Assembly: GCA_024643645.1 (NCBI GenBank)
Contig: JAHEMN010000003.1
Coordinates: 1,409 to 65,408 of the forward strand
Reading direction: 5' to 3'
Origin: Chitinophagaceae bacterium
Lineage (GTDB): Bacteria > Bacteroidota > Bacteroidia > Chitinophagales > Chitinophagaceae
Length of the DNA: 64,000 bases
The notes beneath the pieces are model-generated. The model was not told where the DNA came from and ran no database searches. It saw only the letters and a program-made list of their open reading frames with translations. Shown here in pieces: positions 7,753 through 29,121 of the stretch (positions within the stretch are counted from its first letter, which is position 1; every line of letters begins with the position of its first letter). A program made the position numbers and the translations under genes.

Positions 7753-7817
7753 TGACATAAATCATTACAGCCCCTGCAGTTTATCATTAATCTACTTCAG
7801 GCACAACCTTATTTTCG
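7753..7817 (+). promoter_or_regulatory. Tandem Crp/Fnr-like boxes plus -7 element (P1)
   Basis: TGAC-ATAA-ATCA at 7753, TGCA-GTTT-ATCA at 7775, TATTTTCG at 7810. Confidence 0.7.
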
Positions 7818-7971: not shown

Positions 7972-7981
7972 TTCAATTACT

Positions 7982-8456: not shown

Positions 8457-9512
8457 TTAATACAATAAATGATTTAGTTTTTCTGTATTAATGATTGAAA
8501 TTTTGCCTTCTTTTATTGCTATTAATTTCTCCGATTTAAAATCACTAAGAGTTCTTATCAGGGATTCAGTGGCCGTTCCAACATAATGAGCAAAATCTTC
8601 TCTGGAAATCTCTAATGGCTTGTCTGGATTTTCTGAATTAAATTTTGTCTGAATATCTATTAATGCCTTTGCAACTCTTTTGCGTAAAGAACTATAAGCA
8701 AGGCTCAACAATCTTTCTTCTTTCTCCTTCACATTCTGAGTAATAATCCTGATAAACTTTGCCGCAACATCCATATTGCCATAGATCATACTTAAGAAAT
8801 CATCTTTCGGAATCTGCATAATTTCAGCTTCTTCCATAACTACTGCCGAATCATCATAATTTTTATCTTCAATCAATGCCGGATATCCAATAAAATCTCC
8901 ATCACTAAACAGATCAGTTATATATTCCTTACCATCTTCATGTGTTTTAAACCCCTTCACCTTTCCTTTCACCAGGTAATACAGGTATCGGGGCCTTTTG
9001 CTCTCCTGATAAAGGGTTTGTTTTTTGGAATAGCTTTCAACATCATACTGATCAGATAATTGACTAATAAGCCCCGAATTTTTTACATCTTTAATAAATT
9101 CATTGATCCCATCCTGGGAAGGTGCATATCTGTTATTGAGTATGGCTGCTTTCTTTAATCTTGTTTCAATTCCATTTAACAATTCGATATCCTCAAATGG
9201 TTTTGTAATATAATCGTCAGCTCCCATTTCCATTCCTTTTCTTAAATCACTCCTCTCCGTTTTTGCAGTAAGAAACACAAAAGGAATATTTTCTGTTTCT
9301 TCATTTTTTCGAAGCAGATGCAAAACGCCATAACCATCCAATTCAGGCATCATAATATCACATACAATTACATCGGGCTTCTCTTTCAATGCAACCTCAA
9401 CACCCCTTTTCCCATTTTCTGCAGTAAAAGTTTTATATCCAGCTAATTCAAGAATTTCGGCTGTGTTCTCCCGGATATCCGGGTTGTCATCAATAACTAA
9501 AACAGATTTCAT
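8457..9512 (-). CDS. Response regulator: REC + cNMP-binding fold + Crp/Fnr HTH
   Basis: VIDD...CDIMMP receiver; LYYLVKGKVK beta-barrel; ISREDFAHYVGTATESLIRTLSDF helix-turn-helix. Confidence 0.92.
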   Translation of the reverse strand: MKSVLVIDDNPDIRENTAEILELAGYKTFTAENGKRGVEVALKEKPDVIVCDIMMPELDGYGVLHLLRKNEETENIPFVFLTAKTERSDLRKGMEMGADDYITKPFEDIELLNGIETRLKKAAILNNRYAPSQDGINEFIKDVKNSGLISQLSDQYDVESYSKKQTLYQESKRPRYLYYLVKGKVKGFKTHEDGKEYITDLFSDGDFIGYPALIEDKNYDDSAVVMEEAEIMQIPKDDFLSMIYGNMDVAAKFIRIITQNVKEKEERLLSLAYSSLRKRVAKALIDIQTKFNSENPDKPLEISREDFAHYVGTATESLIRTLSDFKSEKLIAIKEGKISIINTEKLNHLLY

Positions 9513-10747
9513 TTTTTATTTGGTTTAACCGGTACGGTAAAGTTAACTGTAGTTCCCTTATTTAATTCACTTTCTATACTAACTTTTCCACCAATCAGGT
9601 CTATGTACCTTTTTACAATATGCAGGCCAAGTCCAGTACCTTGAATATTTGTTGCATTTGCTGCTCGGAAAAAACTGGAAAAAAGATGTGCTTTATCATC
9701 ATCAGAAATACCTATTCCCTGATCAATAACAGATACAATAATGTTATCCTCTTTCATTTTCCCTTTTATTACAATGGCTTTCTCTTCATCAGAAAACTTA
9801 ACCGCATTGCTTACTAGGTTTATTAATATATTTCTGAACAATTTTTTGTCTGTAAAACCAACCAGATCATTGTTACAGTCCAATTCAAATATTTGCCCTT
9901 TTTTCAAAATAGCTTTCATCTCATCCAACGTTTGTTCGATCAGCTCCTTAATATTTACATTCTCAGTTTCTGCTTCTAATTTTCCTTCGTTTAATTTACC
10001 GAGTGACAAAAAGTCTTCAAGTATATCATTTAAATTATTGACTGAATTTTTTATCCTTTGAATATGTTTATCCCTTTTTACCTGGTCTTCTGCAGTTATA
10101 TATTTTGCCAATAAAGAAGCGGATGAAAATACAGTTGTAAGGGGGGTTCTGAATTCATGAGAAGCCATAGAAACAAAACGACTTTTTATCTCATTAAGCT
10201 GCCGCTCTTTATCTAAAGCTTCACTCAACTCTTCCTGTGACTGTTCCAGCTTTTGCAAAGCTTCTTTTAAGATCAATGTCCTTTCCTCTACTTTAATTTC
10301 AAGATCAGCATTCAGTTGTCTGATCTTTCCTGTTATATTTTCAAGTTCTGCTTTTTGAAGCAGCATACTATTCTCAATTTCTTTTCTTTTAGTAATATCA
10401 ATTACAAAAGCGATCACAAACATTTCACCATCTCTTGTATAATGGCTTAAACTTATTTCCACCGGTAAATCTGAACCATCTTTTTTTCGGCCATGCAGAT
10501 CTCTTCCATGACCCATGGTACGATTGGAGGGTTTTTTATAAAACCCTTCTCTTAATTCATTATGATGTGGTTTGAATTTCTCAGGTATAAGAATTTCAAT
10601 TGGTTTACCTATTAATTCTTCATCAGCATACCCAAACATTTTTCTAACCGCCGGATTAGCCATTACAATAAAACCTTTTCCACTTGTTAGGATTATCCCT
10701 TCAGTTGCATTCTCAAATAAAGAGGTCATATGGGCCTGATCGAGCAT
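9509..10747 (-). CDS. FixL-like PAS sensor histidine kinase
   Basis: PAS with ILIPEKFKPHH and GHGRDLHGRKKDG; H-box SHEFRTPL; N box NLVSNAVKF; G boxes DQGIG and GTGLGL. Confidence 0.92.
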   Translation of the reverse strand: MLDQAHMTSLFENATEGIILTSGKGFIVMANPAVRKMFGYADEELIGKPIEILIPEKFKPHHNELREGFYKKPSNRTMGHGRDLHGRKKDGSDLPVEISLSHYTRDGEMFVIAFVIDITKRKEIENSMLLQKAELENITGKIRQLNADLEIKVEERTLILKEALQKLEQSQEELSEALDKERQLNEIKSRFVSMASHEFRTPLTTVFSSASLLAKYITAEDQVKRDKHIQRIKNSVNNLNDILEDFLSLGKLNEGKLEAETENVNIKELIEQTLDEMKAILKKGQIFELDCNNDLVGFTDKKLFRNILINLVSNAVKFSDEEKAIVIKGKMKEDNIIVSVIDQGIGISDDDKAHLFSSFFRAANATNIQGTGLGLHIVKRYIDLIGGKVSIESELNKGTTVNFTVPVKPNKK

Positions 10748-11179: not shown

Positions 11180-11244
11180 GTAATTTAGTCACTTTCTTAA
11201 CTGACCTCTATCAGTCAATAATAACTTTAACAAGCTTATATTAG
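11180..11244 (+). promoter_or_regulatory. Tandem Crp/Fnr-like boxes plus -7 element (P3)
   Basis: GTAA-TTTA-GTCA at 11180, TGAC-CTCT-ATCA at 11202, TATATTAG at 11237. Confidence 0.65.
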
Positions 11245-12879: not shown

Positions 12880-12922
12880 CAAATTAAACCAGACTCGTTT
12901 TTAAAAATCATGATTAAAATCA
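12880..12922 (-). promoter_or_regulatory. Single Crp/Fnr-like box plus -7-like element (P8)
   Basis: TGAT-TAAA-ATCA at 12911-12922; TTAATTTG on minus strand at the same 35-bp offset; distal box poor. Confidence 0.5.
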
Positions 12923-13377: not shown

Positions 13378-13411
13378 ATACAAACATGCTCATCTGTATT
13401 GAAAATCAGGC

Positions 13412-13476
13412 TGATTAATATCATTTATTTCTTTGATGATAGTCATGGCCATTAAAAACATGTGCCAATACTTTTG
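13412..13476 (+). promoter_or_regulatory. Tandem Crp/Fnr-like boxes plus -7 element upstream of nos operon (P4)
   Basis: TGAT-TAAT-ATCA at 13412, TGAT-GATA-GTCA at 13434, TACTTTTG at 13469. Confidence 0.8.
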
Positions 13477-13526: not shown

Positions 13527-13997
13527 ATGAAACTTGCCAACTTATGTACTGCATTAGCATTTGCATTTAGCCTTGTTTTTATTTCCTGTAAAGAAGGGGT
13601 AAAAAAAGACGAAAAACCAATTGATGTACAGGAATTAACAAAGGATCAACCTGAAACTCATGGTACTGAACTAAAAGAAAGTGATATCACATTAAGTACT
13701 CCTTTGGATCAAACAATGGTAAGCACTGGTAAAGGCATTTATGAATTAAAATGCCAGTCTTGCCATAAACTAACTGAAGAAAAATTAGTAGGCCCTGGTT
13801 GGAAAGATGTAACAAAAACCCGGAAGCCGCTATGGATTATGAATATGATTACTAATGTCGATATGATGTTGGCATCTGATCCTGAAGCGCAAAAATTGCT
13901 TGAACAATGTTTAGTTCGTATGCCTAATCAAAATATTACAACCGAAGATGCAAGAAATGTAGTTGAGTTTATGCGTAATAACGACGGAGAAAAATAG
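13527..13997 (+). CDS. Monoheme cytochrome c lipoprotein (nos-associated)
   Basis: Lipobox FISC, CQSCH heme motif, RMPNQ candidate Met ligand. Confidence 0.9.
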   Translation: MKLANLCTALAFAFSLVFISCKEGVKKDEKPIDVQELTKDQPETHGTELKESDITLSTPLDQTMVSTGKGIYELKCQSCHKLTEEKLVGPGWKDVTKTRKPLWIMNMITNVDMMLASDPEAQKLLEQCLVRMPNQNITTEDARNVVEFMRNNDGEK

Positions 13998-14024
13998 TAT
14001 CACTAAACATATAAATTAAAATTT

Positions 14025-16019
14025 ATGAAAATCTTCCAACCAAAAAACTTGCAATACCTCCTTATTGCAGTTTTTGCATTTTTCTTCCTAGAAAGTTGCA
14101 AACCGAAAGGAGCACAATCCGCTGCTGGCGGAGATGCATCAAAAGCTTATGTAGCGCCAGGTAAATATGATGAGTTTTACAATTTTGTATCCGGTGGTTT
14201 CAGCGGACAAATGTCTGTTTATGGATTACCATCCGGTAGATTATTAAGGGTTATTCCGGTTTTTTCAACTGACCCTGAAAAAGGTTGGGGTTTTAGTGAA
14301 GAAACAAAACCGATGTTGAACACATCACATGGGTTTGTACCCTGGGATGACGCCCATCATCCTGAAATGTCGCAGACCAATGGAGAAGTGGATGGACGCT
14401 GGGTATTTATCAATGGAAATAATACTCCACGTATAGCAAGAATTGATCTGAAAACATTCCGCACAGCAGAAATATTAGAAATTCCAAATAGTGCTGGTAA
14501 TCACTCTTCTGCTTTTGTTACACAAAATACAGAGTATGTTGTAGCGGGAACCCGTTTCAGTATTCCACTGGATAATATGAATGGAGATGTTCCAATTGAT
14601 AGTTACAAACAAAATTTTAAAGGAACTGTCAGTTTTATAAAAGTAGATTCTACAGATGGTAATATGAAAATTGCATTCCAGATTCGAACACCAGGTGTAA
14701 ACTTTGACCTAAGCCATGCCGGCAAAGGGAATAGTCATGGATGGTTCTTCTTCTCATGCTATAATTCTGAACAAGCTAATACTTTATTAGAAGTAAATGC
14801 ATCGCAAAGAGATAAAGATTTTATCATGGCAGTGAATTGGAAAAAAGCAGAGGAATATTTAAAAGCAGGTAAGGGAACAAAGCAGTCTGTTCGTTATGCT
14901 CATAATAAATACAGCGATATTAATCATAGTGCAACATCAACTATAGAAACAGAAGTGACTGTTTTAGATGCTAAAGAGTTAGCGGAAATGGTATACTTAA
15001 TTCCATGCCCTAAGTCTCCACATGGTTGTGATGTAGACCCTACTGGTGAATATATTGTTGGTAGTGGTAAATTAGCAGCTTTGATGCCGGTATATTCATT
15101 CACTAAGCTACAAAAAGCTATTGCAGATAAAGCATTCGATGGAGATTATGAAGGGATTCCTGTTATAAAGTATGAAGCAGCTTTGCATGGTGAAGTACAG
15201 AAACCAGGCTTGGGCCCTCTACACACAGAATTTGATGGAAATGGAAATGCTTATACATCCATGTTTGTTTCTTCTGAAATAGTAAAATGGAATGTAAAAA
15301 GTCTTCAGGTTTTAGACAGGGTACCTACTTATTACTCAATCGGTCACTTATGTGTACCTGGTGGTGATAGCAGAAAACCTTTTGGTAAATATGTTATTGC
15401 TTATAACAAAATCACTAAGGACAGATATTTGCCAACCGGACCTGAATTAACTCAAAGTGCTCAACTTTATGATATCAGTGGTGACAAAATGAAGCTCATA
15501 CTTGACTTCCCTACTATTGGAGAACCACACTATGCCCAAGCTGCACCGGCTGAATTGATTAATAAAAATTCAGTAAAGTTTTTCAAAATTGAAGAAAGTC
15601 AACATCCTTATGTTGCTAAAGGTGAAGGACAAGCCAATATTATAAGAGAAGGAAATAAAGTACATATTAAAATGACTTCCATCCGATCTCATTTTAATCC
15701 AGATAATATTGAAGGTATTAAAGTTGGCGACGAAGTATATTTCCATGTAACTAATCTTGAACAAGACTGGGATGTGCCACATGGATTTTCTATTAAAGGT
15801 GCTAACAATGCTGAATTGCTTATTATGCCAGGAGAAACCCAGACTTTAAAATGGCTGCCTGAAAAAGCAGGGATGTTCCCATTTTATTGCACTGACTTCT
15901 GTTCTGCACTTCATCAGGAAATGCAGGGATATATAAGAGTTTCACCATCAGGTAGCAGTGTCCCACTTTCATTTGGAACAGGTAGAAAACCAACACCATC
16001 CGCGGCAAAAGAACCATAA
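14025..16019 (+). CDS. nosZ: Clade II (Sec-dependent) nitrous-oxide reductase
   Basis: No twin-Arg motif, lipobox LESC; CuZ His motifs DAHH, GNHS, PHG, GPLH, EPH; CuA motif CTDFCSALHQEM. Confidence 0.97.
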   Translation: MKIFQPKNLQYLLIAVFAFFFLESCKPKGAQSAAGGDASKAYVAPGKYDEFYNFVSGGFSGQMSVYGLPSGRLLRVIPVFSTDPEKGWGFSEETKPMLNTSHGFVPWDDAHHPEMSQTNGEVDGRWVFINGNNTPRIARIDLKTFRTAEILEIPNSAGNHSSAFVTQNTEYVVAGTRFSIPLDNMNGDVPIDSYKQNFKGTVSFIKVDSTDGNMKIAFQIRTPGVNFDLSHAGKGNSHGWFFFSCYNSEQANTLLEVNASQRDKDFIMAVNWKKAEEYLKAGKGTKQSVRYAHNKYSDINHSATSTIETEVTVLDAKELAEMVYLIPCPKSPHGCDVDPTGEYIVGSGKLAALMPVYSFTKLQKAIADKAFDGDYEGIPVIKYEAALHGEVQKPGLGPLHTEFDGNGNAYTSMFVSSEIVKWNVKSLQVLDRVPTYYSIGHLCVPGGDSRKPFGKYVIAYNKITKDRYLPTGPELTQSAQLYDISGDKMKLILDFPTIGEPHYAQAAPAELINKNSVKFFKIEESQHPYVAKGEGQANIIREGNKVHIKMTSIRSHFNPDNIEGIKVGDEVYFHVTNLEQDWDVPHGFSIKGANNAELLIMPGETQTLKWLPEKAGMFPFYCTDFCSALHQEMQGYIRVSPSGSSVPLSFGTGRKPTPSAAKEP

Positions 16020-16030
16020 AAATAAACAAT

Positions 16031-16061
16031 ATGAACTCCTCTTCAATAAAGAGGAGTTCAT
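16031..16061 (+). other. Intra-operon stem-loop after nosZ
   Basis: ATGAACTCCTCT-7nt-AGAGGAGTTCAT, no T-tract. Confidence 0.6.
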
Positions 16062-16101
16062 TACCAATTAGCATCTCATATAAAAACTAAAACTGTTTGA
16101 T

Positions 16102-16671
16102 ATGAAAAATTTAATAAAAATATTTTCAGCAATAATTATCTTTTCTTTTTTTATTGCTTGTAATAATGAAAATAAAGAATCTTCTACGGCTGACAACACT
16201 AATACTACGACGGCAGGCGGTCAAGAGGCAGTACAAGATGATGAATCAGAAAAAGATATTGTAAAGATTGCGGTTGGATCTAAAGATCACACAACACTAG
16301 TTGCTGCTTTACAACAAGCAGATTATGTAACTGCATTATCTAATGCAGGTCCATTCACAGTTTTTGCACCAACAAATGCCGCTTTCGATAAGTTACCTGC
16401 AGGTACAGTTGAAGGTTTAATGAAAGCAGATAAGAAACTAGACTTACAGAATATTCTTGAATATCATGTTTCTATTGGTGTATTTAAAGAAGATATGATG
16501 CAAGATGGGCAAATGATTGATCAGGCTAATAATAAAAAAATCACTATCAGCAAAGGGGCTGATGGCAAAATAAAAGTAAACGGAACTGCTAATATTGTTG
16601 CAGCGATAAAGGCAAGTAATGGATTGGTGTATGTAATAGATGAAGTATTACTACCACCTGCGAAAAACTAA
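16102..16671 (+). CDS. Fasciclin (FAS1) domain lipoprotein
   Basis: Lipobox FIAC; GPFTVFAPTNAAF and NGLVYVIDEVLLP. Confidence 0.92.
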   Translation: MKNLIKIFSAIIIFSFFIACNNENKESSTADNTNTTTAGGQEAVQDDESEKDIVKIAVGSKDHTTLVAALQQADYVTALSNAGPFTVFAPTNAAFDKLPAGTVEGLMKADKKLDLQNILEYHVSIGVFKEDMMQDGQMIDQANNKKITISKGADGKIKVNGTANIVAAIKASNGLVYVIDEVLLPPAKN

Positions 16672-16699
16672 GTCTGAAAAGACTTCTTCATTTTAAACT

Positions 16700-16725
16700 A
16701 CCTCCGGGTGTAAAAACCCGGAGGT
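16700..16725 (+). other. Intra-operon stem-loop after fasciclin gene
   Basis: ACCTCCGGGT-6nt-ACCCGGAGGT. Confidence 0.6.
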
Positions 16726-16739
16726 TAATTTACCAACAA

Positions 16740-17330
16740 ATGAATAAACATCTTAGTATACCTTCAAGGATTCTTGTAGCTTTTGCCAGTGGCGCCCTTA
16801 TAGCGGTTTTTCTACTTCCTGCCTGGCGAATTGATCTTTTTGCTCCTCAGTATCCCGAAGGACTATCTATGTACATATGGATAAACAAACTAAGTGGTGA
16901 TATAGACATTATTAATGGATTAAATCATTACATAGGAATGAAACATATATCAATGGAAATGTTTCCTGAGTTTAAATATATGTCCTATGTCGTTTTATTT
17001 TTTATGTTGTTGGGTATGACAGCTGCCATTACTGGAAAACGAAAAATATTATTAGCCTATATCATAGCGACAATTATTGGGGGCTTATTAGTACTTTATG
17101 ATTTATATAGGTGGGGTTATGATTATGGTCACAACCTGGATTCAAAAGCAGCGATTCAAGTGCCTGGATTATCATATCAGCCTCCAGTAATAGGCCATAA
17201 ACGTCTTTTAAATTTCGATGCATATTCTTTCCCAGATGCTGCAGGATGGATTGTAATAGGTGCTGGTTCATTATGCATCATTGTCTGGCTTGTGGAATGG
17301 TATATTAATAGAAAAAATAAAACGAAATGA
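16740..17330 (+). CDS. nosB: NosB-like membrane protein of clade II nos clusters
   Basis: Four hydrophobic segments, APQYPEGL and INGLNHYIGM motifs, position in nos operon. Confidence 0.7.
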   Translation: MNKHLSIPSRILVAFASGALIAVFLLPAWRIDLFAPQYPEGLSMYIWINKLSGDIDIINGLNHYIGMKHISMEMFPEFKYMSYVVLFFMLLGMTAAITGKRKILLAYIIATIIGGLLVLYDLYRWGYDYGHNLDSKAAIQVPGLSYQPPVIGHKRLLNFDAYSFPDAAGWIVIGAGSLCIIVWLVEWYINRKNKTK

Positions 17331-17770
17331 AATCAAATACATCCTTATTGATATTAACTTTTTTATTATTCATTTTCACCTCTTGTTCGTCTCAACCGCA
17401 ACCTTTTGTTACAGGACAGGATGATTGTCATGTTTGCAAGATGGGTTTAGTTGATTTCAAATATGGCGGAGAAATAATTACGAATAAGGGAAAAGTTTAC
17501 AAATTTGATGATATGCGTTGTATGATCAGTTTTATCAAATCTAATTCCCTCGAAGAAAAAGAAATTTCAAAAACCCTAACCATGAATTTTAATAAACCTA
17601 ATGAATTTTTGGATGTAAAAAAAGCATGGTTTGCTGTAAGTGCTGATTTAAGAAGCCCAATGGGTAGTAATGCAGCCGGATTTGGTTCAAAATCAGAAGC
17701 AGAAAATGTCTTAAAAGACAAAACCGGTCAGATTTTTCGTTGGGCCGACTTATTAGAAAGGAGTAAATAG
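17327..17770 (+). CDS. nosL: NosL copper chaperone lipoprotein
   Basis: Lipobox FTSC, CHVCKM, FDDMRCM, SPMG. Confidence 0.9.
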   Translation: MKSNTSLLILTFLLFIFTSCSSQPQPFVTGQDDCHVCKMGLVDFKYGGEIITNKGKVYKFDDMRCMISFIKSNSLEEKEISKTLTMNFNKPNEFLDVKKAWFAVSADLRSPMGSNAAGFGSKSEAENVLKDKTGQIFRWADLLERSK

Positions 17771-17773
17771 TTC

Positions 17774-19006
17774 ATGAAGTTTATTGCAATAATAATAATC
17801 CTGGCCTTCTCAGTCTCGTCATTTGGTAATACAATTACTGTAGGTAAAGATAAATCGATAACCAGTATTTCAAAAGGGGTTGCATTAGCCAAAAATGGAG
17901 ATACTGTAAAAGTGTATCCAGGTTTTTACCGTGAAGGAAGAATCACTGTTACTAAGCAAATTACTTTAATTGGAATAAATTTTCCGGTGATTGATGGACA
18001 AAAAAAATTTGAAAATTTAGTTGTTAGCGGTAGTAATATCAAGATAATGGGTTTTCATTTTATAGATTCCAAACATTCCAGCTCTGAAGATTATTCTGCA
18101 ATCAATATTATTGATGCCACAAATATTATAATTGAGAATAACAAAATCACTAATGCACATTTCGGTATTCATATTGCAAACAGTACATTTTGTACAGTAA
18201 AAGGGAATGATATAGTCGGGCAAGCTGTTTCAGAACAAAGTGCAGGCAATGGTATACATATCTGGAAATCATCACATGCATTTATTACCAATAACCATAT
18301 TCAGGGTCATCGTGATGGTATATACTTCGAATTTGTAACAGATTCCGAAATCAGAAATAACAAGAGTGAAAACAATATCCGTTATGGTTTGCATTTTATG
18401 TTTTCACATAATAATTACTATGCATATAACACATTTAGGAAAAACGGAGCCGGAGTTGCAGTTATGTACACCCATCATGTAAGAATGGAACATAATATTT
18501 TTGAACAAAACTGGGGAACTGCTTCTTATGCCATTCTATTAAAGGATATTACAGATAGCTGGATAATCAATAATCAATTTATCTCTAATACAATCGGCAT
18601 ATTCATGGAAGGTTGTAATAGAATTGATGTTAAGAAGAATATATTTAGTAAAAATGGCTGGGCAATGAAAGTTCAGGCAAACTGTGTAGACAACGTAATT
18701 ACAAATAATAATTTCAAAAGTAACACATTTGATATTTCAACTAATGGAACAATGGTTTCAAGCAGTTTTGAGTACAACTATTGGGATAAATACGAAGGCT
18801 ATGATCTAAATAAAGACGGAATCGGGGATATCACTTATCATCCTGTTAGTATGTATTCAATGATCATCGAGCAAAATCCAAATGCTTTGATACTTTTACG
18901 AAGTTTTATGGTAACGCTTTTGGACAAAGCAGAAAAAGCACTACCCACTTTAACCCCTGAAAACCTGGTAGACAGAAAACCAAAGATGAAACCCTTTCAA
19001 TTATGA
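17774..19006 (+). CDS. nosD: NosD periplasmic copper-insertion protein
   Basis: Beta-helix repeats, GNGIHIW, RYGLHFMFS, NYWDKY, DGIGD. Confidence 0.95.
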   Translation: MKFIAIIIILAFSVSSFGNTITVGKDKSITSISKGVALAKNGDTVKVYPGFYREGRITVTKQITLIGINFPVIDGQKKFENLVVSGSNIKIMGFHFIDSKHSSSEDYSAINIIDATNIIIENNKITNAHFGIHIANSTFCTVKGNDIVGQAVSEQSAGNGIHIWKSSHAFITNNHIQGHRDGIYFEFVTDSEIRNNKSENNIRYGLHFMFSHNNYYAYNTFRKNGAGVAVMYTHHVRMEHNIFEQNWGTASYAILLKDITDSWIINNQFISNTIGIFMEGCNRIDVKKNIFSKNGWAMKVQANCVDNVITNNNFKSNTFDISTNGTMVSSSFEYNYWDKYEGYDLNKDGIGDITYHPVSMYSMIIEQNPNALILLRSFMVTLLDKAEKALPTLTPENLVDRKPKMKPFQL

Positions 19007-19746
19007 TCAGAATAGAAAATATTAATAAGCGGTTTAAAAAGCTAAAAGCACTGGATAATATTTCTGCCTCATTTGAAAAAGGTCAGGTAATCTCTTTGAT
19101 TGGGCCAAACGGATCTGGAAAAACTACTTTGATTAAATCAATTCTAGGAATGGTAAAGCCAGATAGTGGTAAAATATATTTTAACAATGAACATATAAAT
19201 GGAGGATTTAGTTATCGGAAAGATATCGGCTATATGCCTCAAATCGGTCGCTATCCTGACAATATGAAAGTTGGCCAGCTATTTAGCATGTTGAAAAATA
19301 TCCGTAATGAACCAGATGAAAATCTCGATAATGAATTAATACGGGAATTTAATCTTTGTACCATTTTTGAAAAACCGATGCGCACCTTATCAGGTGGCAC
19401 CAGGCAAAAAGTAAGTGCTGCAATTGCATTTTTATTTAATCCATCTGTACTTATTCTTGATGAACCAACAGCTGGACTTGACCCCTTATCATCTGAAATC
19501 TTAAAAGAAAAAATTATCAGGGAGAAAGGAAAGGGAAAACTAATTCTTATTACATCACATATACTCAGTGATCTTGATGAACTTACAACTCATGTTATGT
19601 ATATACAAGAAGGTAAAATACAATTTTTGAAAAACATTGAAACACTAAGAGAAGATACCGGAGAAATAAAACTTGGCAAAGCTATTGCAAGGATTATGAA
19701 AGGCGAAGACCCAACAGGTAATTTCATTTCTGAATTTCTGAAATAA
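19003..19746 (+). CDS. nosF: NosF ABC ATPase
   Basis: GPNGSGKTT, LSGG, ILDEPTAGLD; overlaps nosD stop. Confidence 0.92.
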   Translation: MIRIENINKRFKKLKALDNISASFEKGQVISLIGPNGSGKTTLIKSILGMVKPDSGKIYFNNEHINGGFSYRKDIGYMPQIGRYPDNMKVGQLFSMLKNIRNEPDENLDNELIREFNLCTIFEKPMRTLSGGTRQKVSAAIAFLFNPSVLILDEPTAGLDPLSSEILKEKIIREKGKGKLILITSHILSDLDELTTHVMYIQEGKIQFLKNIETLREDTGEIKLGKAIARIMKGEDPTGNFISEFLK

Positions 19747-19762
19747 AATAATTAATTAAGCA

Positions 19763-20530
19763 ATGATGAAACTCCCACGATACGTATTGTATGATATTCT
19801 AAGAAGCAAAATAATTATTGCATATACCTTATTTCTCTTCATTGTTTCTCTCAGTATGTTTCAGATGGAAGAAGATAGCAGTAAAGCCATGCTAAGCCTG
19901 ATGAATATCATTCTAATCGTTTTGCCATTGGTGAGTTTGATATTTACTACAATTCATTATTACAATTCCTATGAATTTATTGAATTAATGCTTTCACAAC
20001 CATTGAGCAGAAAAAGAATTCTTTTAAGTGAGTTTGCCGGAGTTGCTTTATCATTATTGTCTTCGTTCATGATCGGGGTGGGTATACCCGTATTACTTTA
20101 TTCAGCTTCAGAAACAGGCTTTGCACTTTTATTTACAGGAGCATCTCTAACATTGGTATTTACATCAATTGCATTTCTTGCTTCTGTAATATCCAGAGAC
20201 AAAGCAAAAGGCATAGGCTTTGCTTTGTTGCTGTGGTTCTATTTTACATTAATATATGACGGACTAGTTCTTTTAATACTATTTTCTTTCAGCGATTATC
20301 CTTTGGAAAAATTCACTCTTTTGCTATCTGCATTAAATCCTGTTGATCTTGGCCGGATATTTATTATGCTTAAAATGGATGTAAGTGCTCTAATGGGATA
20401 TACTGGTGCATTATATAAAGATTTTTTTGGAAGTGGCGCCGGTTTACTTTATACCATTGGCATTATGACTCTATGGATTATTATTCCATTATGGATTGCA
20501 GTAAGGAAATTCAATAAAAAAGATTTATAA
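19763..20530 (+). CDS. nosY: NosY ABC permease
   Basis: Multiple hydrophobic helices, LNPVDL motif, follows nosF. Confidence 0.88.
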   Translation: MMKLPRYVLYDILRSKIIIAYTLFLFIVSLSMFQMEEDSSKAMLSLMNIILIVLPLVSLIFTTIHYYNSYEFIELMLSQPLSRKRILLSEFAGVALSLLSSFMIGVGIPVLLYSASETGFALLFTGASLTLVFTSIAFLASVISRDKAKGIGFALLLWFYFTLIYDGLVLLILFSFSDYPLEKFTLLLSALNPVDLGRIFIMLKMDVSALMGYTGALYKDFFGSGAGLLYTIGIMTLWIIIPLWIAVRKFNKKDL

Positions 20531-21351: not shown

Positions 21352-21416
21352 TGATAATAATCAGTTTGGCTATTGAAATTACTCATATCCATCCTTATAT
21401 GCCGGCTCTATTTTAG
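21352..21416 (+). promoter_or_regulatory. Tandem Crp/Fnr-like boxes plus -7 element upstream of ccoI (P5)
   Basis: TGAT-AATA-ATCA at 21352, TGAA-ATTA-CTCA at 21374, TATTTTAG at 21409. Confidence 0.78.
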
Positions 21417-21436: not shown

Positions 21437-23830
21437 ATGCCTGATTCAGCCACTATTCAACAACTTAATTGCTACCATTGCGGCGAAGTATGTATGAATG
21501 ATTCAATTAATTCATCTGATAAAATATTTTGCTGTGAGGGATGTAAGATGGTATTCCATATTCTGAATGAGACTGATTTATGTGATTATTATGCTCTTAA
21601 TAAAAACCCTGGGATCAGTCAACGGATAAAAGTAAGAAATGATAAGTTCGCATTTCTTGATAATGAAAAGATCCAGAATCAAATTATTAGCTTTAAGGAT
21701 GATGAACAAATGCATGTTACCTTCTATTTACCACAAATGCATTGCAGCTCCTGTTTGTATTTACTTGAAAACCTATACCGCATCAACCCGGGAATACTTT
21801 CCAGCAAAGTAAATTTTACACGGAAGGAAGCAGACATTGTATTAATTACTTCAAAAACAAATCTTCGTGCAGTTGCTGAAACGTTGACTAGTATTGGATA
21901 TGAGCCGTATATCAGTTTGAATGACTTGAAAGAAAAAAGACCTGCTATTAATAAAAGTATGGTTTATCAGTTGGGAATTGCCGGCTTTTGTTTCGGTAAT
22001 ATCATGTTGATGAGTTTTCCGGAATATCTTGGTATTGATGCAAGCGATACAGCACTAAGAACCATTTTTCGTTGGATGAATTTTGGTTTAGCGATTCCAG
22101 TTTTATTATATTCAGCACTCCCCTTTTATACATCCTCATGGAAAAGCCTGAAACATAAATTCCTGAATATAGATGCGCCAATAGCTTTGGCAATCATTAT
22201 AACCTTTATAAGAAGTGCTTATGAAGTAATAAGCGGAACAGGTGGCGGGTATTTTGATTCCATGACAGGCATCGTTTTTTTTATGTTGGCAGGCCGAATA
22301 TTACAGGATAAAACTTATCGCCAACTGTCTTTTGAAAGAGATTATACTTCTTATTTTCCAATCGCCATTTCAATAATTAAGGAAGAAAAAGAAATTACAA
22401 AAACCTTACCTGAAATAAAACCCGGCGACACCTTACTTATCCATAACGAAGAGTTAATACCAGCAGATGGAATATTGACAAAAGGCAAAGCATTTATTGA
22501 TTACAGTTTTGTTACCGGTGAATCATTACCCGTTTTAAAAGAGGTTGGTGAACTGATCTATGCAGGCGGCAAACAAACTGAAAGTAATATTGAAATGTTA
22601 GTAGTAAAAGAAGTTGCACAAAGTTATTTGACCAAACTTTGGAACAGAAGTGAATTTAAAAAAGAGGATAAAGAGAAAAATACATCATTTGTTCATCTGC
22701 TCAGCCGGTATTTCACCTATATAGTATTAACCATAGCAACCGCCACTGCTGTTTATTGGCAGATCAACGACTCTTCAAAAATGTGGGCAGCAGTTACAGC
22801 AGTATTTATCATTGCATGCCCTTGTGCATTATTGCTATCAAATTCTTTTACAAACGGAAATATTCTCAGAATACTCAGTAGAAACCAATTCTTTTTAAAG
22901 AATGCTGAAACAATTGAAGAGATCGCAAAAGTTTCACATATTGTATTTGATAAAACAGGCACACTTACTACTTCTCAGAAGCAGGATATTAAATATGAAG
23001 GAAATATATTGACTACATTTCAAAAGCAACAAATTGCTTCATTGGCTGCCAACTCTACTCACCCATTAAGCAAAGCCTTGGCTAAATATCTCTCTTATGA
23101 AAAAAATAGCAGGGTTGCTGGATTTAAAGAGACCATTGGCCAGGGTATAGAAGGAATTGTCAATGAAGATTTAATAAAACTTGGGTCTTATCAATTTGTA
23201 TCAGGAAAAAATGATCATCAACCCGGCACTAAAATTTTTATATCTATAGAAAATAAATTACTTGGCCACTTTCATTTCAGTAATCATTACAGAGAAGAGA
23301 TTCCGGCATTAATAAAGAAATTAAAAGATAATTACCGCCTTTCAGTAATATCAGGTGATAATGAAACCGAAAAGGAAAATCTGCATCAGTTATTAGGCAA
23401 AAAAACAGTAGTTCTTTTTCATCAGCAACCGGAAGACAAGTTGCAATACATAAAACATTTACAGGAACAATCGGGCAAGGTAATGATGATTGGGGATGGT
23501 TTGAATGATGCCGGAGCATTAAAACAAAGTGATATAGGAATTGCAGTTGCAGAAAAAACCAATAATTTCACTCCTTCCAGCGATGCTATTATTGAAGCCA
23601 AACAACTTTCAAGACTTCCACGTTTCATTGAGCTTTGCAGAGCCAATAGAAATATTGTTATAGCAAGCTTTGTATTATCGATCGTATATAACATTATTGG
23701 ATTGTTTTTTGCAGTTCAAGGCACACTTTCTCCACTTATAGCTGCCATTTTGATGCCCAGCAGTTCTCTCAGCATTCTTCTTATCACCTTTGGAACTAGT
23801 AATATTCTGGCAAAATGGCTAAAACTATAA
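21437..23830 (+). CDS. ccoI: P1B-type copper ATPase for cbb3 assembly (CcoI/FixI)
   Basis: CYHC...CCEGC, CSSC, TGES, CPC, DKTGT, GDGLND. Confidence 0.92.
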   Translation: MPDSATIQQLNCYHCGEVCMNDSINSSDKIFCCEGCKMVFHILNETDLCDYYALNKNPGISQRIKVRNDKFAFLDNEKIQNQIISFKDDEQMHVTFYLPQMHCSSCLYLLENLYRINPGILSSKVNFTRKEADIVLITSKTNLRAVAETLTSIGYEPYISLNDLKEKRPAINKSMVYQLGIAGFCFGNIMLMSFPEYLGIDASDTALRTIFRWMNFGLAIPVLLYSALPFYTSSWKSLKHKFLNIDAPIALAIIITFIRSAYEVISGTGGGYFDSMTGIVFFMLAGRILQDKTYRQLSFERDYTSYFPIAISIIKEEKEITKTLPEIKPGDTLLIHNEELIPADGILTKGKAFIDYSFVTGESLPVLKEVGELIYAGGKQTESNIEMLVVKEVAQSYLTKLWNRSEFKKEDKEKNTSFVHLLSRYFTYIVLTIATATAVYWQINDSSKMWAAVTAVFIIACPCALLLSNSFTNGNILRILSRNQFFLKNAETIEEIAKVSHIVFDKTGTLTTSQKQDIKYEGNILTTFQKQQIASLAANSTHPLSKALAKYLSYEKNSRVAGFKETIGQGIEGIVNEDLIKLGSYQFVSGKNDHQPGTKIFISIENKLLGHFHFSNHYREEIPALIKKLKDNYRLSVISGDNETEKENLHQLLGKKTVVLFHQQPEDKLQYIKHLQEQSGKVMMIGDGLNDAGALKQSDIGIAVAEKTNNFTPSSDAIIEAKQLSRLPRFIELCRANRNIVIASFVLSIVYNIIGLFFAVQGTLSPLIAAILMPSSSLSILLITFGTSNILAKWLKL

Positions 23831-23856
23831 GCCTGTAGTTTACAGCTCCCTCAAGC

Positions 23857-23921
23857 TGATAAAAATCAGTTTTTCCCCTGATACTGCTTATACTAACCCG
23901 GAAGAGGTAAAAATACTTTTA
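23857..23921 (+). promoter_or_regulatory. Tandem Crp/Fnr-like boxes plus -7 element upstream of ccoS-ccoNO (P6)
   Basis: TGAT-AAAA-ATCA at 23857, TGAT-ACTG-CTTA at 23879, TACTTTTA at 23914. Confidence 0.75.
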
Positions 23922-23939
23922 CTGCTATAATATATCAGA

Positions 23940-24107
23940 ATGAGTGTAATTATTATCCTACTGGTTGCCAGCATCTCAGTAGCAGCTATTTTTTTAGTTG
24001 CCTTTCTTTGGGGTGTTAGATCCGGCCAGTTCGAAGACGATTACTCCCCTTCTTCCCGAATTCTTTTTGACGATAAGCCTTCTTCATCAACCAAAACAAA
24101 TAAATAA
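23940..24107 (+). CDS. ccoS: cbb3 oxidase assembly protein CcoS (55 aa, absent from ORF track)
   Basis: Hand translation MSVIIILLVASISVAAIFLVAFLWGVRSGQFEDDYSPSSRILFDD. Confidence 0.9.
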   Translation: MSVIIILLVASISVAAIFLVAFLWGVRSGQFEDDYSPSSRILFDDKPSSSTKTNK

Positions 24108-24115
24108 TCTCTGTT

Positions 24116-26272
24116 ATGCAAGAAACAAATCAAGGCATGCAAATTGAAAAATTTTATTACGATAATAAAATTGTAAAAGCCTTTGGATATGCTACTGTCA
24201 TTTTTGGTATTGTTGGCATGATAGTAGGTTTATGGGTAGCTATCCAGTTCTATTATCCCGATAGCAGCCTCAATTTTGCAGCTACTACATTTGGGCGTTT
24301 AAGACCATTGCATACCAATGCTATCATTTTTGCATTTGTAGGTAATGCTTCATTTGCCGGTATTTATTATTCTTTACAGCGTTTGTGTAAAGCAAGAATG
24401 TTCAGTGACAAACTGGGCTGGGTACATTTCTGGGGCTGGCAATTAATTATTGTTGGTGCCGCTATCACCTTGCCATTAGGGCTTAATAATGGTGCTGAAT
24501 ATGCAGAGTTGATCTGGCCAATTGACATCGCAATTGCATTAGTATGGGTCATATTCGGTATCAATATGTTTGGCACAATTCTAAAAAGAAGAGAAAAACA
24601 TTTATACGTTGCAATATGGTTTTATATTGCTACCTGGGTTACCGTTGCTTTATTACATATTGTCCGCTCTGTAGAATTACCTTATTCACTCACTGGTAGT
24701 TATAGTTGGTATGCCGGTGTACAAGATGCATTGGTACAATGGTGGTATGGTCATAATGCTGTAGCATTTTTCCTTACTACACCTGTTTTAGGATTGATGT
24801 ATTATTTCCTTCCTAAAGCTGCAAACAGACCCGTTTATTCATATCGTCTTTCTATTATTCACTTTTGGGCGTTGATATTTATTTACATATGGGCTGGCCC
24901 TCACCATTTACTATATACAGCTTTACCTGACTGGGCACAATCACTTGGTGTTGTATTTTCTATTATGTTGATTGCCCCTAGCTGGGGTGGAATGCTGAAT
25001 GGATTATTTACACTACGTGGCGCATGGGACAAAGTAAGAGAAGATCCTGTTTTAAAATTTATGGTAGTAGCCATTACCTGTTATGGCATGAGTACTTTAG
25101 AAGGTCCCCTTATGAGTTTGAAAAGTGTAAATGCTGTGGCTCACTTTAGCGACTGGATCGTAGCACATGTTCATATCGGCGGTTTGGGATGGAATGGCTT
25201 CATGGCATTCTCTATACTATATTATATGATTCCTAAAATGTGGGGTACTAATTTATATTCAAAAAAATTAGCTACTAATCACTTTTGGCTGGGCACAATA
25301 GGAATTATTATCTATGCAGTTCCATTGTATTGGGCAGGATTTGAACAAAGTATTATGTGGAAACAGTTTACTCCCGAAGGACAATTGAAATTCGACTTCC
25401 TGCAAACTGTTACCAATATTCGACCTATGTATATAGCCCGGAGTATTGGTGGCACATTATACCTGATTGGTGCTTTCATAATGACATATAACCTTTATAA
25501 GACTATAAGACAGGGTAAATTCATAGCAAATGAAGCAGCTGAAGCTGCGCCATTAATTAAAGAGGTATCTAAGAAAAAAGAATACTGGCACAGGGTAATT
25601 GAAAGAAAACCATTGACCATGTTGGTCTTAAGTCTTGTATTAGTGGCAATAGGTGGATTAGTACAAATGATTCCGACATTCCTTGTAAAATCAAATGTGC
25701 CGACACTGGCCAGTGTAAAGCCTTATACACCTTTGGAATTGCAAGGCAGGGATATATATGTACGGGAAGGATGTTACACTTGTCATTCCCAAATGATAAG
25801 ACCATTTAGGGATGAAGTAGCCCGCTATGGAGAATACTCAAAAGCAGGTGAGTTTGTTTACGATCATCCTTTCCAATGGGGAAGCAAACGGACTGGCCCG
25901 GATTTGGCAAGAGAAGGAGCAAATAAAAATAAAAGACCAGACTCCTGGCATTTCAATCATATGTATGATCCAACATCTACATCTCCAGGATCACTAATGC
26001 CAAGATATATCTGGTTACTTGATAATAAACTGGATACAAATTCAACACCTGCAAAAATAAGAGCTATGCAAACCTTAGGGGTTCCGTATCCGGAAGGATA
26101 TGACAAAATAGCTAATCAGAAACTGATGGAGCAAGCAGAGGCAATTACTGCCAATCTAAAAAAAGAAAAAATAGAAACAGCATCAGACGCTGAGATCATT
26201 GCTGTTATCGCTTACTTACAACGATTAGGAAAGGATATAGAGAATGAACCCAAACCTATTACAAAACAATAA
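24116..26272 (+). CDS. ccoNO: Fused cbb3 cytochrome c oxidase subunits I and II
   Basis: LRPLHTN, WWYGHN, WAGPHH, HVHIG; C-terminal CYTCH and WGSKRTGPDL. Confidence 0.97.
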   Translation: MQETNQGMQIEKFYYDNKIVKAFGYATVIFGIVGMIVGLWVAIQFYYPDSSLNFAATTFGRLRPLHTNAIIFAFVGNASFAGIYYSLQRLCKARMFSDKLGWVHFWGWQLIIVGAAITLPLGLNNGAEYAELIWPIDIAIALVWVIFGINMFGTILKRREKHLYVAIWFYIATWVTVALLHIVRSVELPYSLTGSYSWYAGVQDALVQWWYGHNAVAFFLTTPVLGLMYYFLPKAANRPVYSYRLSIIHFWALIFIYIWAGPHHLLYTALPDWAQSLGVVFSIMLIAPSWGGMLNGLFTLRGAWDKVREDPVLKFMVVAITCYGMSTLEGPLMSLKSVNAVAHFSDWIVAHVHIGGLGWNGFMAFSILYYMIPKMWGTNLYSKKLATNHFWLGTIGIIIYAVPLYWAGFEQSIMWKQFTPEGQLKFDFLQTVTNIRPMYIARSIGGTLYLIGAFIMTYNLYKTIRQGKFIANEAAEAAPLIKEVSKKKEYWHRVIERKPLTMLVLSLVLVAIGGLVQMIPTFLVKSNVPTLASVKPYTPLELQGRDIYVREGCYTCHSQMIRPFRDEVARYGEYSKAGEFVYDHPFQWGSKRTGPDLAREGANKNKRPDSWHFNHMYDPTSTSPGSLMPRYIWLLDNKLDTNSTPAKIRAMQTLGVPYPEGYDKIANQKLMEQAEAITANLKKEKIETASDAEIIAVIAYLQRLGKDIENEPKPITKQ

Positions 26273-26287
26273 TAAAATCAACCTATA

Positions 26288-27648: not shown

Positions 27649-27672
27649 GCAATTAAGAGATGAAAAGAAAAA

Positions 27673-29109: not shown

Positions 29110-29121
29110 TAAAAATAAATT

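Follow-up and report, generated by a model that had tools for sequence, protein, structure and literature searches.

A FixL-like kinase and a receiver-fused Crp/Fnr regulator form a conserved Bacteroidota module that probably controls cbb3 oxidase and clade II N2O reductase genes at low oxygen

Among the biological sinks for the greenhouse gas N2O, clade II nitrous oxide reductase (NosZ) is a major one in soils, sediments, and wastewater. To our knowledge, hardly anything has been described of how Bacteroidota sense oxygen and regulate clade II nosZ. A 64-kb stretch of DNA from a Chitinophagaceae genome (the window) raises the question in concrete form, since overlapping genes for a sensor histidine kinase (HK) with a FixL-like PAS domain and a response regulator (RR) with a Crp/Fnr-type output are found there together with genes for a cbb3 oxidase and a clade II N2O reductase. 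What does this pair sense, and which genes does it control? The evidence presented below leads us to propose that the module probably turns on the adjoining high-affinity oxidase, N2O reductase, and stress genes at low O2. A literature search, whose reach ended short of Galperin's response-regulator census papers, returned nothing on this pairing or on REC-Crp regulators, and Bacteroidota lie outside the coverage of the CRP/FNR meta-regulon paper.

Both reading frames named in a preliminary description of the window were recovered at the same coordinates, both on the minus strand, and every peptide quoted there is present in the translations. The HK stop codon and the RR start codon share four nucleotides. 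Pfam domains in HK (PAS, 53.8 bits; HisKA, 48.9 bits; HATPase_c, 93 bits) and in RR (Response_reg, 100.9 bits; cNMP_binding, 69.8 bits; HTH_Crp_2, 49.5 bits) all score above their curated cut-offs, so that the REC-cNMP-HTH architecture first assigned to the partner stands. In alignments of orthologues, the HK H-box SHEFRTPL is invariant and the catalytic residues are intact in both the kinase and the receiver. The AF2 model of HK (pLDDT 73.6) has a helix, residues 119-215, that continues unbroken into H197. Features of the locus are collected in Table 1.

Table 1. Positions, in the window, of the gene pair, its candidate functional residues, the boxes, and the predicted targets
Feature	Position	Strand	Description	Basis
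HK, soluble sensor histidine kinase	9509..10747	-	412 aa; PAS aa 4-120, long helical linker aa 119-215, HisKA, HATPase_c	ORF list, Pfam; AF2 model for parts
FixL/DosP-type PAS, putative haem pocket	10388..10738	-	HK aa 4-120	PDB phmmer, conservation, AF2
H62 codon	10562-10564	-	Proximal His of HK PAS	
R82 codon	10502-10504	-	Distal Arg of HK PAS	
M78 codon	10514-10516	-	Invariant Met of HK PAS	
RR, response regulator	8457..9512	-	351 aa; REC aa 1-126, linker helix, cNMP-like beta-roll aa 158-245, dimerisation helix aa 262-291, HTH_Crp_2 aa 278-348	ORF list, Pfam
Phospho-acceptor Asp52 codon	9357..9359	-	Preceded by invariant Cys51	
Recognition helix GTATESLIRTLSDF	8538..8579	-	RR aa 312-325, with E316 and R320	
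Box	7753..7764	+	5' of orf155 (7934-8401); -63.5-type distance	
Box TGACCTCTATCA	11202..11213	+	Divergent YgaP-like/usp promoter region; -41.5-type for usp (11253-12089)	
Box	12911..12922	-	5' of RIC/ScdA (12106-12855, -); -41.5-type distance	
Tandem boxes TGATTAATATCA (13412-13423) and TGATGATAGTCA (13434-13445)	13412..13445	+	Rrf2/cytochrome c-nosZ intergenic region; 22 bp centre-to-centre	
-7 element TACTTTTG	13469-13476	+	51 and 29 bp from the tandem boxes	
Predicted target operon	13527..20530	+	Cytochrome c, Sec-dependent (clade II) NosZ, fasciclin protein, orf196, NosL, NosD, NosF, NosY	Pfam
Box TGATAATAATCA	21352..21363	+	5' of ccoI (Cu-ATPase); -63.5-type distance	
Predicted target cluster (cbb3 oxidase and assembly)	21437..30272	+	ccoI, ccoS, ccoNO (fused), ccoP, ccoG, fixH, DsbD_2-family protein	Pfam
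Box CTGATAAAAATCAG	23857..23868	+	5' of ccoS (23940-24107) and ccoNO; same position in 14/19 loci	

The HK-RR pair is a conserved module of the Bacteroidota, found in Chitinophagales, Cytophagales, and Flavobacteriaceae, and cbb3-oxidase and/or clade II nos genes are its near-constant neighbours. We compared at least about 80 species-level loci, with approximately 600 tblastn-confirmed matches among species representatives. Carriers that can be cultivated include Sediminibacterium magnilacihabitans DSM 22423, Segetibacter aerophilus NBRC 106135, and Flavihumibacter cheonanensis WS16. RR was found beside RIC, nos, and/or cco genes in 80 species-level loci, and HK adjoins it in about 59 of these 80, as it also does in distant clades. 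In about ten genomes the two genes instead flank the cco operon, one at each end, and a RR homologue of only 31% identity lies directly 5' of ccoI-ccoNO-ccoP. The high-affinity cbb3 oxidase is the most constant neighbour across all clades. A genome scan with a family alignment mostly matched unrelated receivers (REC-only patterns), and from it loci L081-L086 were used. Within the window, the NosZ assignment is supported by TIGR04246 (948 bits, cut-off 625) and that of CcoS by TIGR00847, and two RIC/ScdA Fe-S repair genes belong to the predicted regulon. In a search for transcripts, the only sequencing runs containing the locus were of sediment-metagenome DNA.

What the sensor domain might bind is best judged from its sequence relatives. 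A Foldseek search of PDB with the whole HK model returned mainly generic kinase cores (WalK, YF1, HK853) and was uninformative about the PAS pocket, which makes the phmmer search of PDB sequences the discriminating test. The best matches of the PAS domain were RmFixL (1d06, E-value 1e-17), BjFixL (1dp6, 2e-15), and EcDosP (1e-14). Apart from one unnamed multi-sensor kinase entry, the top fourteen matches, with E-values from 1e-17 to 1e-12, all belong to FixL or DosP/EcDos, while the next PAS domain in PDB scores 4e-4, a gap of eight orders of magnitude. The likeness to FixL and DosP is therefore far above chance. Pfam models PAS and PAS_9 match in HK, and the PAS topology is seen in the AF2 model as well. 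The alignment with rhizobial FixL first made by eye over the segment ILIPEKFKPHHNEL...GHGRDLHGRKKDG (HK residues 52-91), keeping the proximal His and the distal Arg, was reproduced without gaps by phmmer: H62 aligns with BjFixL H200 and R82 with BjFixL R220. H62 thus occupies the position of the F-alpha proximal His (BjFixL H200, EcDos H77), at the N-terminus of the model's helix 62-71, and EcDos R97 is the counterpart of the distal Arg.

These positions are strongly conserved among HK orthologues (H62 in 57 of 57, M78 in 58 of 58, R82 in 54 of 59), and all three are kept in homologues from Cytophagales and Flavobacteriaceae, apart from one Flavobacteriaceae homologue in which R82 is replaced by Leu. 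R76 and the surrounding motif are conserved alongside them in orthologues and distant homologues. These features place the domain in the haem-PAS cluster of FixL and DosP, named "cluster 3" by Xing et al. 2023, where the ability to bind haem depends primarily on the F-alpha His (PMC10468136). Haem binding by HK is predicted; for reference, the Soret band of SmFixL lies at about 434 nm in the deoxy and about 418 nm in the oxy form (PMC10765370). It is conceivable that the PAS domain carries no haem, that it senses something else, such as a small metabolite, or only dimerises, and that its likeness to FixL reflects ancestry. The His is missing from approximately 40% of the sequences that make up the FixL/DosP cluster, and these presumably bind no haem (PMC10468136); some propionate and distal contacts of FixL differ in HK, with Gly for R206 and Thr/Met for I215/I216. 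We nevertheless consider this very unlikely, because the His does not vary in any orthologue or distant homologue, and R82, R76, M78, and the motif around them are kept with it; without haem, it would be hard to explain why precisely those positions are conserved that ligate haem or contact the ligand.

A haem-binding PAS domain need not behave as FixL does. HK scores 119.4 bits against the NCBIfam FixL equivalog model NF041777, below its cut-off of 850, and HK is FixL-like, not an orthologue of FixL. The distal Ile-Ile pair of FixL (RmFixL I209/I210, BjFixL I215/I216) is occupied by T77, which is Val, Ser, or Thr across relatives, and by the invariant M78. The propionate-binding R206 of BjFixL corresponds to G68, and R76 matches the Arg that RmFixL has at the position of BjFixL H214. 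With Thr/Val/Ser-Met in place of Ile-Ile, and Gly in place of R206, HK could differ from FixL in ligand affinity, in coordination state, and even in the ligand itself. A bis-His six-coordinate haem formed through H80, at the position of the axial Met95 of EcDos, was considered and dropped as a family trait, since this position varies among His, Gln, Ser, and Ala. M78, two residues upstream, is invariant, and may be an alternative axial ligand.

The same proteins and the same regulon could accordingly be read as a switch for NO stress and denitrification, with the haem sensing NO (or CO, or redox state) instead of O2. In favour of such a ligand, two RIC/ScdA repair genes belong to the predicted regulon, which has a promoter region in common with a gene for an Rrf2-family regulator, the nos genes themselves serve an N-oxide pathway, and the Ile-Ile pair that shapes discrimination among O2, CO, and NO in FixL is Thr-Met here, with M78 invariant; the second-best PAS matches, moreover, are of the six-coordinate EcDos type, whose members react to more than one gas and also to redox state. 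Several observations fit O2 better. The most constant neighbour is the cbb3 oxidase, a classic low-O2 target; the conserved distal Arg is the residue that hydrogen-bonds bound O2 in FixL and EcDos; usp genes are typical of hypoxia regulons; and the separate Rrf2 regulator is already available for an NO-type signal. We therefore regard NO or another such ligand as unlikely, and continue with O2 as the probable one.

The partner of this kinase combines a receiver with a complete Crp/Fnr module. Its AF2 model has a pLDDT of 84.3, and the top Foldseek matches are Thermus thermophilus CAP, GlxR, FNR, Porphyromonas gingivalis 2gau, and CRP; neither sequence nor Foldseek searches of PDB found a structure spanning all three RR domains. 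The receiver site (D8/D9, D52, T82, Y101, K104) is conserved in 79 orthologues and the wider family, C51 and D52 remaining invariant down to 37% identity. RR is the predicted recipient of the phosphoryl group from HK; the two genes are linked through their four-nucleotide overlap and their adjacency. The NCBIfam Fnr profile scores 66.8 bits on RR, and identity to Escherichia coli CRP is 26% over 189 residues. In the pocket peptide GYPALIEDKNYDDSA (residues 209-223), the CRP contacts to cAMP are all replaced (E72 by Y210, R82 by D220, S83 by D221), and only 11 of 139 representatives of the wider family have Arg at the CRP R82 position. The observation that the pocket lacks the cAMP-binding Glu and Arg is thus borne out, and by its residues it cannot bind cAMP. 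Equally, C51 is the sole Cys of the protein, so the Fnr Cys cluster is absent, as had been noted. The recognition helix, including TESLIR (residues 315-320) with the E316 and R320 pair already pointed out, is invariant in the 79 orthologues; across the wider family, the Glu is present in 135 of 139 representatives and the Arg in 136.

Most members of the Crp/Fnr family read TGA-N6-TCA. The canonical Fnr/FixK box TTGAT-N4-ATCAA is not enriched in the window (seven occurrences with at most one mismatch, ten expected), and following this enrichment count it was replaced as the presumed operator by the palindrome (C/A)TGAT-N4-ATCA(G/T), found twelve times where 2.7 are expected, a count reached in none of 100 shuffles. 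In most of 80 related loci this palindrome occurs 5' of cytochrome c-nosZ, RIC, ccoI, ccoS-ccoNO, and usp. Counted by gene, a box lies upstream of cytochrome c-nosZ in 25 of 29 loci, RIC in 34 of 41, ccoI in 19 of 23, ccoNO in 14 of 19, usp in 12 of 20, YgaP in 5 of 6, and orf155 in 18 of 32, against a background of 8.6% and none for intra-operon genes. The product of orf155 is a conserved protein of unknown family, and its box arrangement is alike in Niabella (L082). The region upstream of HK is boxed in just 7 of 59 loci, and autoregulation was dropped as a general feature.

The placement of the boxes largely follows a fixed geometry. Among 59 pairs of a box with a Bacteroidota -7 element, the distance from box centre to the element is exactly 29 bp in 25 cases and exactly 51 bp in 27. 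With start sites inferred from the -7 element, these distances put box centres at about -41.5 and about -63.5, which, to the extent that an inferred element can stand in for a mapped start, are activator positions. Two boxes are present in 15 of 25 orthologous cytochrome c-nosZ promoters, and in 13 of these 15 the spacing is 22 bp. The tandem boxes for which RR had been named the best candidate are thus conserved and stand at activator positions so inferred, and RR is the only Crp-type candidate in the window.

It might be argued that HK and RR are a genuine pair and yet another, stand-alone Crp/Fnr protein reads the boxes, with RR controlling other genes or competing for the same ones. Most Crp/Fnr proteins have the E...R recognition helix, and RR is therefore not alone in its box specificity; the check for paralogues covered the window and about 10-20 kb of flanks, so that one encoded elsewhere could bind; and in one locus, L079, a further, weak Crp-like ORF adjoins nosZ. 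Such a division of labour seems to us improbable. No other Crp-type ORF occurs in the 64-kb window, and the RR gene stays physically linked with boxed promoters across about 80 species and in distant clades, in arrangements that include divergent RR/ccoI promoters and the order HK...cco...RR. Helix and box go together: the recognition helix does not vary where the box is conserved, and both are kept in distant loci L082-L085. Finally, the box flank is C/A instead of the T favoured by Fnr and FixK, in agreement with Ile319 of RR at a position where Fnr has Ser. RR itself is the better candidate for binding the boxes.

On these grounds the following mechanism can be proposed. In cytoplasmic HK, His62 of the only PAS domain, which is of the FixL/DosP type, would ligate haem b. 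On the model of FixL, the kinase would be kept off as long as O2, stabilised by Arg82, occupies the ferrous haem, and loss of O2 would lead to autophosphorylation on His197. The phosphoryl group would then pass to Asp52 of the co-translated RR, whose predicted output is the whole Crp/Fnr unit of beta-roll, dimerisation helix, and HTH with a dead nucleotide pocket. Because that pocket is dead, and because the receiver is N-terminal, where Fnr has its Fe-S cysteines, phosphorylation, and not cAMP or an Fe-S cluster, presumably drives formation of the DNA-binding dimer. The dimer would read (C/A)TGAT-N4-ATCA(G/T) at about -41.5 and/or -63.5, often as two boxes 22 bp apart, and would activate ccoI, ccoS-NO-P-G, the clade II nos operon, RIC, usp, and orf155. 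With a receiver fused to the Crp/Fnr module, one regulator could cover the roles of both FixJ and FixK. The suggestion in the preliminary description that FixL-FixJ-FixK is here compressed into two proteins agrees with domain make-up, synteny, and boxes, and is well supported by conservation of the pair beside cco and nos and by conserved boxes of fixed geometry.

One of the closest known parallels is the rhizobial FixL-FixJ-FixK cascade of Bradyrhizobium diazoefficiens and Sinorhizobium meliloti. It begins with a haem-PAS kinase that shares its proximal His and distal Arg with HK, and has downstream a Crp/Fnr-type HTH acting on a TGA-N6-TCA-type palindrome, with cbb3 genes (fixNOQP/ccoNOQP, fixGHIS) and nos among the targets, as predicted for RR; FixK2 is reported to activate nosRZDYFLX (PMC5582078). 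Here, in contrast, there are two proteins and not three, with neither a FixJ step nor a separate FixK: FixJ joins its receiver to a LuxR/NarL-type HTH, whereas the partner of HK is REC-cNMP-HTH_Crp_2. HK also differs from rhizobial FixL in its single PAS domain, the absence of a membrane anchor, Thr-Met for Ile-Ile, and a much longer helical linker, while the box flank is C/A instead of the T of FixK, the phylum is Bacteroidota, and NosZ is of clade II. In Rhizobium leguminosarum, a FixL-type sensor is reported to be similarly wired to a non-FixJ regulator, the OmpR-type FxkR linking hFixL to FixK and fixNOQP (PMC7888657); as described there, that system has three steps with a separate FixK, a hybrid kinase, and an output of OmpR type, not Crp type.

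EcDos/DosP keeps the His and Arg of the PAS domain, but its output is a c-di-GMP phosphodiesterase. The C-terminal two-thirds of RR has the fold of Fnr (by Foldseek, that of Aliivibrio fischeri), and Fnr of E. coli and A. fischeri likewise has its sensory element N-terminal of the beta-roll, a class II position near -41.5, and a low-O2 regulon, as predicted here. RR differs in lacking the Cys cluster; O2 would act through a separate haem kinase and phosphorylation and not directly on Fe-S. With E. coli CRP, RR shares domain order and the E-x-x-x-R helix, and it adds an N-terminal receiver and has Tyr/Asp/Asp for E72/R82/S83.

For Bacteroidota, the module offers a concrete and testable answer, with candidate residues in the sensor (H62, R82, M78, H197) and the regulator (D52, E316, R320), a defined operator, a promoter geometry exact to the base pair, and a predicted conserved regulon (cbb3, nos, RIC, usp, orf155). 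If correct, it would represent a mode of Crp/Fnr activation uncharacterised as far as we found, in which a fused receiver takes the place of cAMP, Fe-S, or haem, and a natural case of a pathway compressed in comparison with FixLJ-FixK. O2-regulated genes in Bacteroidota metagenomes could be predicted with the help of the operator motif. A wider view, which we hold only tentatively and with considerable doubt, is that REC-cNMP-HTH proteins make up a large, Bacteroidota-wide class of phosphorylation-activated Crp/Fnr regulators, of which the present clade would serve soil and sediment Bacteroidota as the master low-O2 regulator of both cbb3 oxidase and clade II N2O reductase. Two further extensions may be mentioned. 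On the 22-bp tandem boxes, two Crp-type dimers might be joined through their receivers into a phosphorylation-dependent tetramer, and the conserved non-nucleotide pocket (Y210, Y219, D/E220-221), or the invariant Cys51 beside Asp52, might add a metabolite or oxidation input.

The sensor histidine kinase (HK) and the response regulator (RR) lie at exactly the coordinates given in the preliminary description, and every peptide it quoted is present in the two proteins. The RR start codon overlaps the HK stop codon (ATGA), the usual arrangement in translationally coupled operons. G+C content of the window is about 35%. Homologues of the pair bear generic database names and come from Chitinophagaceae; among sequencing runs, the locus was found in sediment-metagenome DNA runs only.

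Features of the window discussed in the text
Feature	Positions	Strand	Remarks
orf155, conserved	7934-8401	+	box 7753-7764 at -63.5-type distance
RR, 351 aa	8457-9512	-	ORF; Pfam Response_reg, cNMP_binding and HTH_Crp_2 above curated cut-offs
RR Cys51 codon	9360-9362	-	directly precedes phospho-acceptor Asp52
HK, 412 aa	9509-10747	-	ORF; Pfam PAS, HisKA and HATPase_c above curated cut-offs
YgaP-like membrane protein, tandem-Usp protein, RIC/ScdA, Rrf2 regulator			downstream of pair
Cytochrome c, Sec-dependent (clade II) NosZ, nosLDFY			downstream of pair
Second RIC			downstream of pair
ccoI, ccoS, fused ccoNO, ccoP, ccoG, fixH, DsbD_2-family gene			downstream of pair
RIC/ScdA paralogue	12106-12855	-	has its own box
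Tandem nos boxes, region	13381-13445		shared with divergent Rrf2 gene
NosZ	14025-16019	+	matches Sec-dependent NosZ model TIGR04246, 948 bits
RIC/ScdA paralogue	20560-21297	+	last gene of nos operon
Box	30302-30313		between DsbD_2-family gene (ends 30272) and trmD (30493)
-7 element TACTTTTA	30337-30344		
Neighbouring ORFs of 221 and 193 aa	32470-33750	-	DUF4331
2,075-aa hybrid kinase/receiver ORF, then stand-alone receiver	39678-46307	+	
Further receiver ORFs	50390-51130; 52632-53675; 53672-54046		
Five paralogous ORFs in a run	54062-63955	-	four of ~650-680 aa, one of 410 aa

A phmmer comparison of HK residues 1-138 with all PDB sequences gave 14 matches at E-values of 1e-17 to 1e-12, the next PAS domain following at 4e-4. 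All 14 are FixL (S. meliloti, B. japonicum), DosP/EcDos, or one unnamed multi-sensor kinase entry. The FixL and EcDos alignments are gap-free and pair H62 with the proximal ligand (BjFixL H200, EcDos H77) and R82 with the distal Arg (BjFixL R220, EcDos R97), reproducing an alignment to FixL previously made by eye. Among 60 orthologous kinases from related loci, every ungapped sequence (57 of 57) has H62 and 54 of 59 have R82; R66, P73, N75, R76, and M78 are likewise near-invariant. Homologues of 34-49% identity from Niabella, Larkinella (Cytophagales), and a Flavobacteriaceae MAG retain this haem-PAS signature, as does the kinase of related locus L086, though its BLAST alignment covers the kinase core only. 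In the AlphaFold model of HK (pLDDT 73.6), H62 sits at the start of helix 62-71 (F-alpha), and a single unbroken helix leaves the PAS domain at residue 119 and continues as the DHp helix bearing H197. Xing et al. 2023 (PMC10468136) group FixL with DosP in a single PAS cluster and find that haem binding depends primarily on the F-alpha His. Given the PDB matches, the conservation of H62 and R82, the modeled position of H62, and the F-alpha His rule, membership in the haem-PAS class, with putative haem binding, has the strongest support that sequence can give; that this PAS domain works without haem is very improbable.

HK scores 119 bits against the NCBIfam FixL equivalog, whose cut-off is 850, and is not a FixL orthologue. 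The distal Ile-Ile of FixL is replaced by Thr(Val/Ser)-Met in the HK family, the Met being invariant, and HK has Gly at the position of BjFixL R206. Bis-His haem coordination through H80 (the EcDos Met95 position) was considered and dropped because H80 is not conserved.

The REC-cNMP-HTH architecture proposed for RR in the preliminary description is borne out by its Pfam matches, and the AlphaFold model (pLDDT 84.3) comprises REC, a linker helix, a beta-roll, a long dimerisation helix, and the HTH; no PDB entry spanning all three domains was found by sequence or by fold. Because D9, D52, T82, Y101, and K104 of the receiver are conserved across 79 orthologues, RR should be phosphorylatable. In an alignment with E. 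coli CRP (RR-CRP homology was independently shown by other searches), the CRP cAMP contacts E72, R82, and S83 correspond to Y210, D220, and D221, and this predicted acidic pocket cannot accept a cyclic phosphate. RR also has no Fnr-type cluster, since its sole Cys is C51; the preliminary description had already claimed the absence of the cAMP-binding Glu and Arg and of the Cys cluster. The recognition helix GTATESLIRTLSDF is invariant.

REC-cNMP-HTH proteins are a large family, because an exhaustive RR search over 1.84 billion cluster representatives found 2,735 clusters at E <= 1e-30, of which the best 150 are almost all full-length (~350 aa, 37-67% identity to RR). The family keeps D52, E316, and R320, and only 11 of 139 representatives have Arg at the CRP R82 position. 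As a separate observation, Cys51 is invariant throughout the family, down to 37% identity, and, lying at the phosphorylation site, may be sensitive to redox state.

Synteny was compared over about 20 kb around each homologue in 80 species-level loci retrieved with RR, where RR almost always adjoins HK plus RIC, nos and/or cco. About ten genomes (among the related loci, L025, L027, L032, L040, L057, L061, L066, L068, and L070) have HK and RR apart, one at either end of the entire cco operon (HK> <DsbD2...ccoI RR>), with RR divergent from ccoI and a boxed promoter common to both. An RR homologue of only 31% identity lies immediately upstream of ccoI-ccoNO-ccoP. The RIC and Rrf2 neighbours and the altered distal pocket would suit an HK that senses NO or redox state instead of O2, but the tie to the cbb3 oxidase is universal and the distal Arg is conserved, and we regard such a signal as unlikely. 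The RIC paralogues are of the di-iron Fe-S repair type. The Sec signal of NosZ is lipoprotein-like (…FFFLESC), and a twin-arginine motif is absent; after NosZ come a fasciclin-domain protein and a membrane ORF of 196 aa without a family match.

Canonical Fnr boxes show no enrichment in the window. The palindrome CTGAT-N4-ATCAG (<=1 mismatch) occurs 12 times versus 2.7 expected (0 of 100 shuffles), in promoters of the pair's neighbour genes. At related loci, TGAY-N4-RTCA is found <=300 bp upstream of cyt c-nosZ (25/29), RIC (34/41), ccoI (19/23), ccoNO (really ccoS; 14/19), and usp (12/20), against a background of 8.6% and zero for genes inside operons. The base flanking these boxes is C (42%) or A (36%), where Fnr/FixK boxes have T. 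Fifteen of 25 cyt c-nosZ promoters carry two boxes, spaced exactly 22 bp apart in 13 of the 15. Most telling is the placement of the boxes relative to the Bacteroidota -7 element TAnnTTTG: of 59 box/-7 pairs, 25 have exactly 29 bp and 27 exactly 51 bp between the centre of the box and the start of the element. The -7 element in Bacteroides promoters spans roughly -12 to -5; if so here, the boxes would lie at about -41.5 and -63.5 from the predicted start sites, where Crp/Fnr-family regulators act as class II and class I activators, respectively. Eleven boxes in the window have this geometry, versus 0-4 at control distances, and distant loci retain both the recognition helix and same-geometry boxes upstream of usp, the orf155 homologue, and ccoI. 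Within the 64-kb window no ORF other than RR is of the Crp type, and it is improbable that another Crp/Fnr paralogue reads the boxes.

The gene orf155, without a Pfam or NCBIfam family match, has a box in 18 of 32 loci and also in Niabella (L082), and probably belongs to the same regulon; in many genomes it is convergent to RR. Box 30302-30313 has perfect -41.5-type geometry, and may serve a small ORF or RNA that is missing from the annotation. Read on the minus strand, the tandem nos boxes are 29 and 51 bp away from CATGTTTG, which resembles a -7 element and overlaps the annotated Rrf2 start; the Rrf2 start may therefore be wrongly assigned, or the resemblance may be coincidence.

We think it rather likely that the pair is a low-oxygen switch, in which the haem-PAS kinase would phosphorylate the receiver fused to the Crp/Fnr module and phosphorylated RR would bind the boxes and activate cco, nos, RIC, usp, and orf155; haem binding, ligand, kinase polarity, phosphotransfer, DNA binding, and transcription start sites are computational predictions. 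The receiver takes the N-terminal position where Fnr carries its Fe-S segment, and phosphorylation-driven dimerisation would therefore be the most economical model. The pair functionally resembles FixLJ-FixK: sensor and DNA-binding module are each of the same kind, and the targets overlap (fixNOQP/cco, nos). It differs in having two proteins rather than three, as the preliminary description had proposed for a compressed cascade, and in its phylum, non-orthologous kinase, and variant operator. Rhizobial hFixL-FxkR-FixK illustrates that the FixL partner can change, although this and like rhizobial variants keep a separate FixK (PMC7888657). A literature search found no paper on the HK/RR pairing or on REC-Crp regulators; response-regulator censuses may list the architecture.

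Elsewhere in the window, the two neighbouring DUF4331 ORFs align with opposite ends, N- and C-terminal, of a single profile (421 positions), which suggests one gene interrupted by a frameshift or stop, or a misassembly. The five paralogous ORFs have weak kinase-core similarity; the signalling-dense region that includes them and the hybrid kinase is unrelated to the HK/RR finding.
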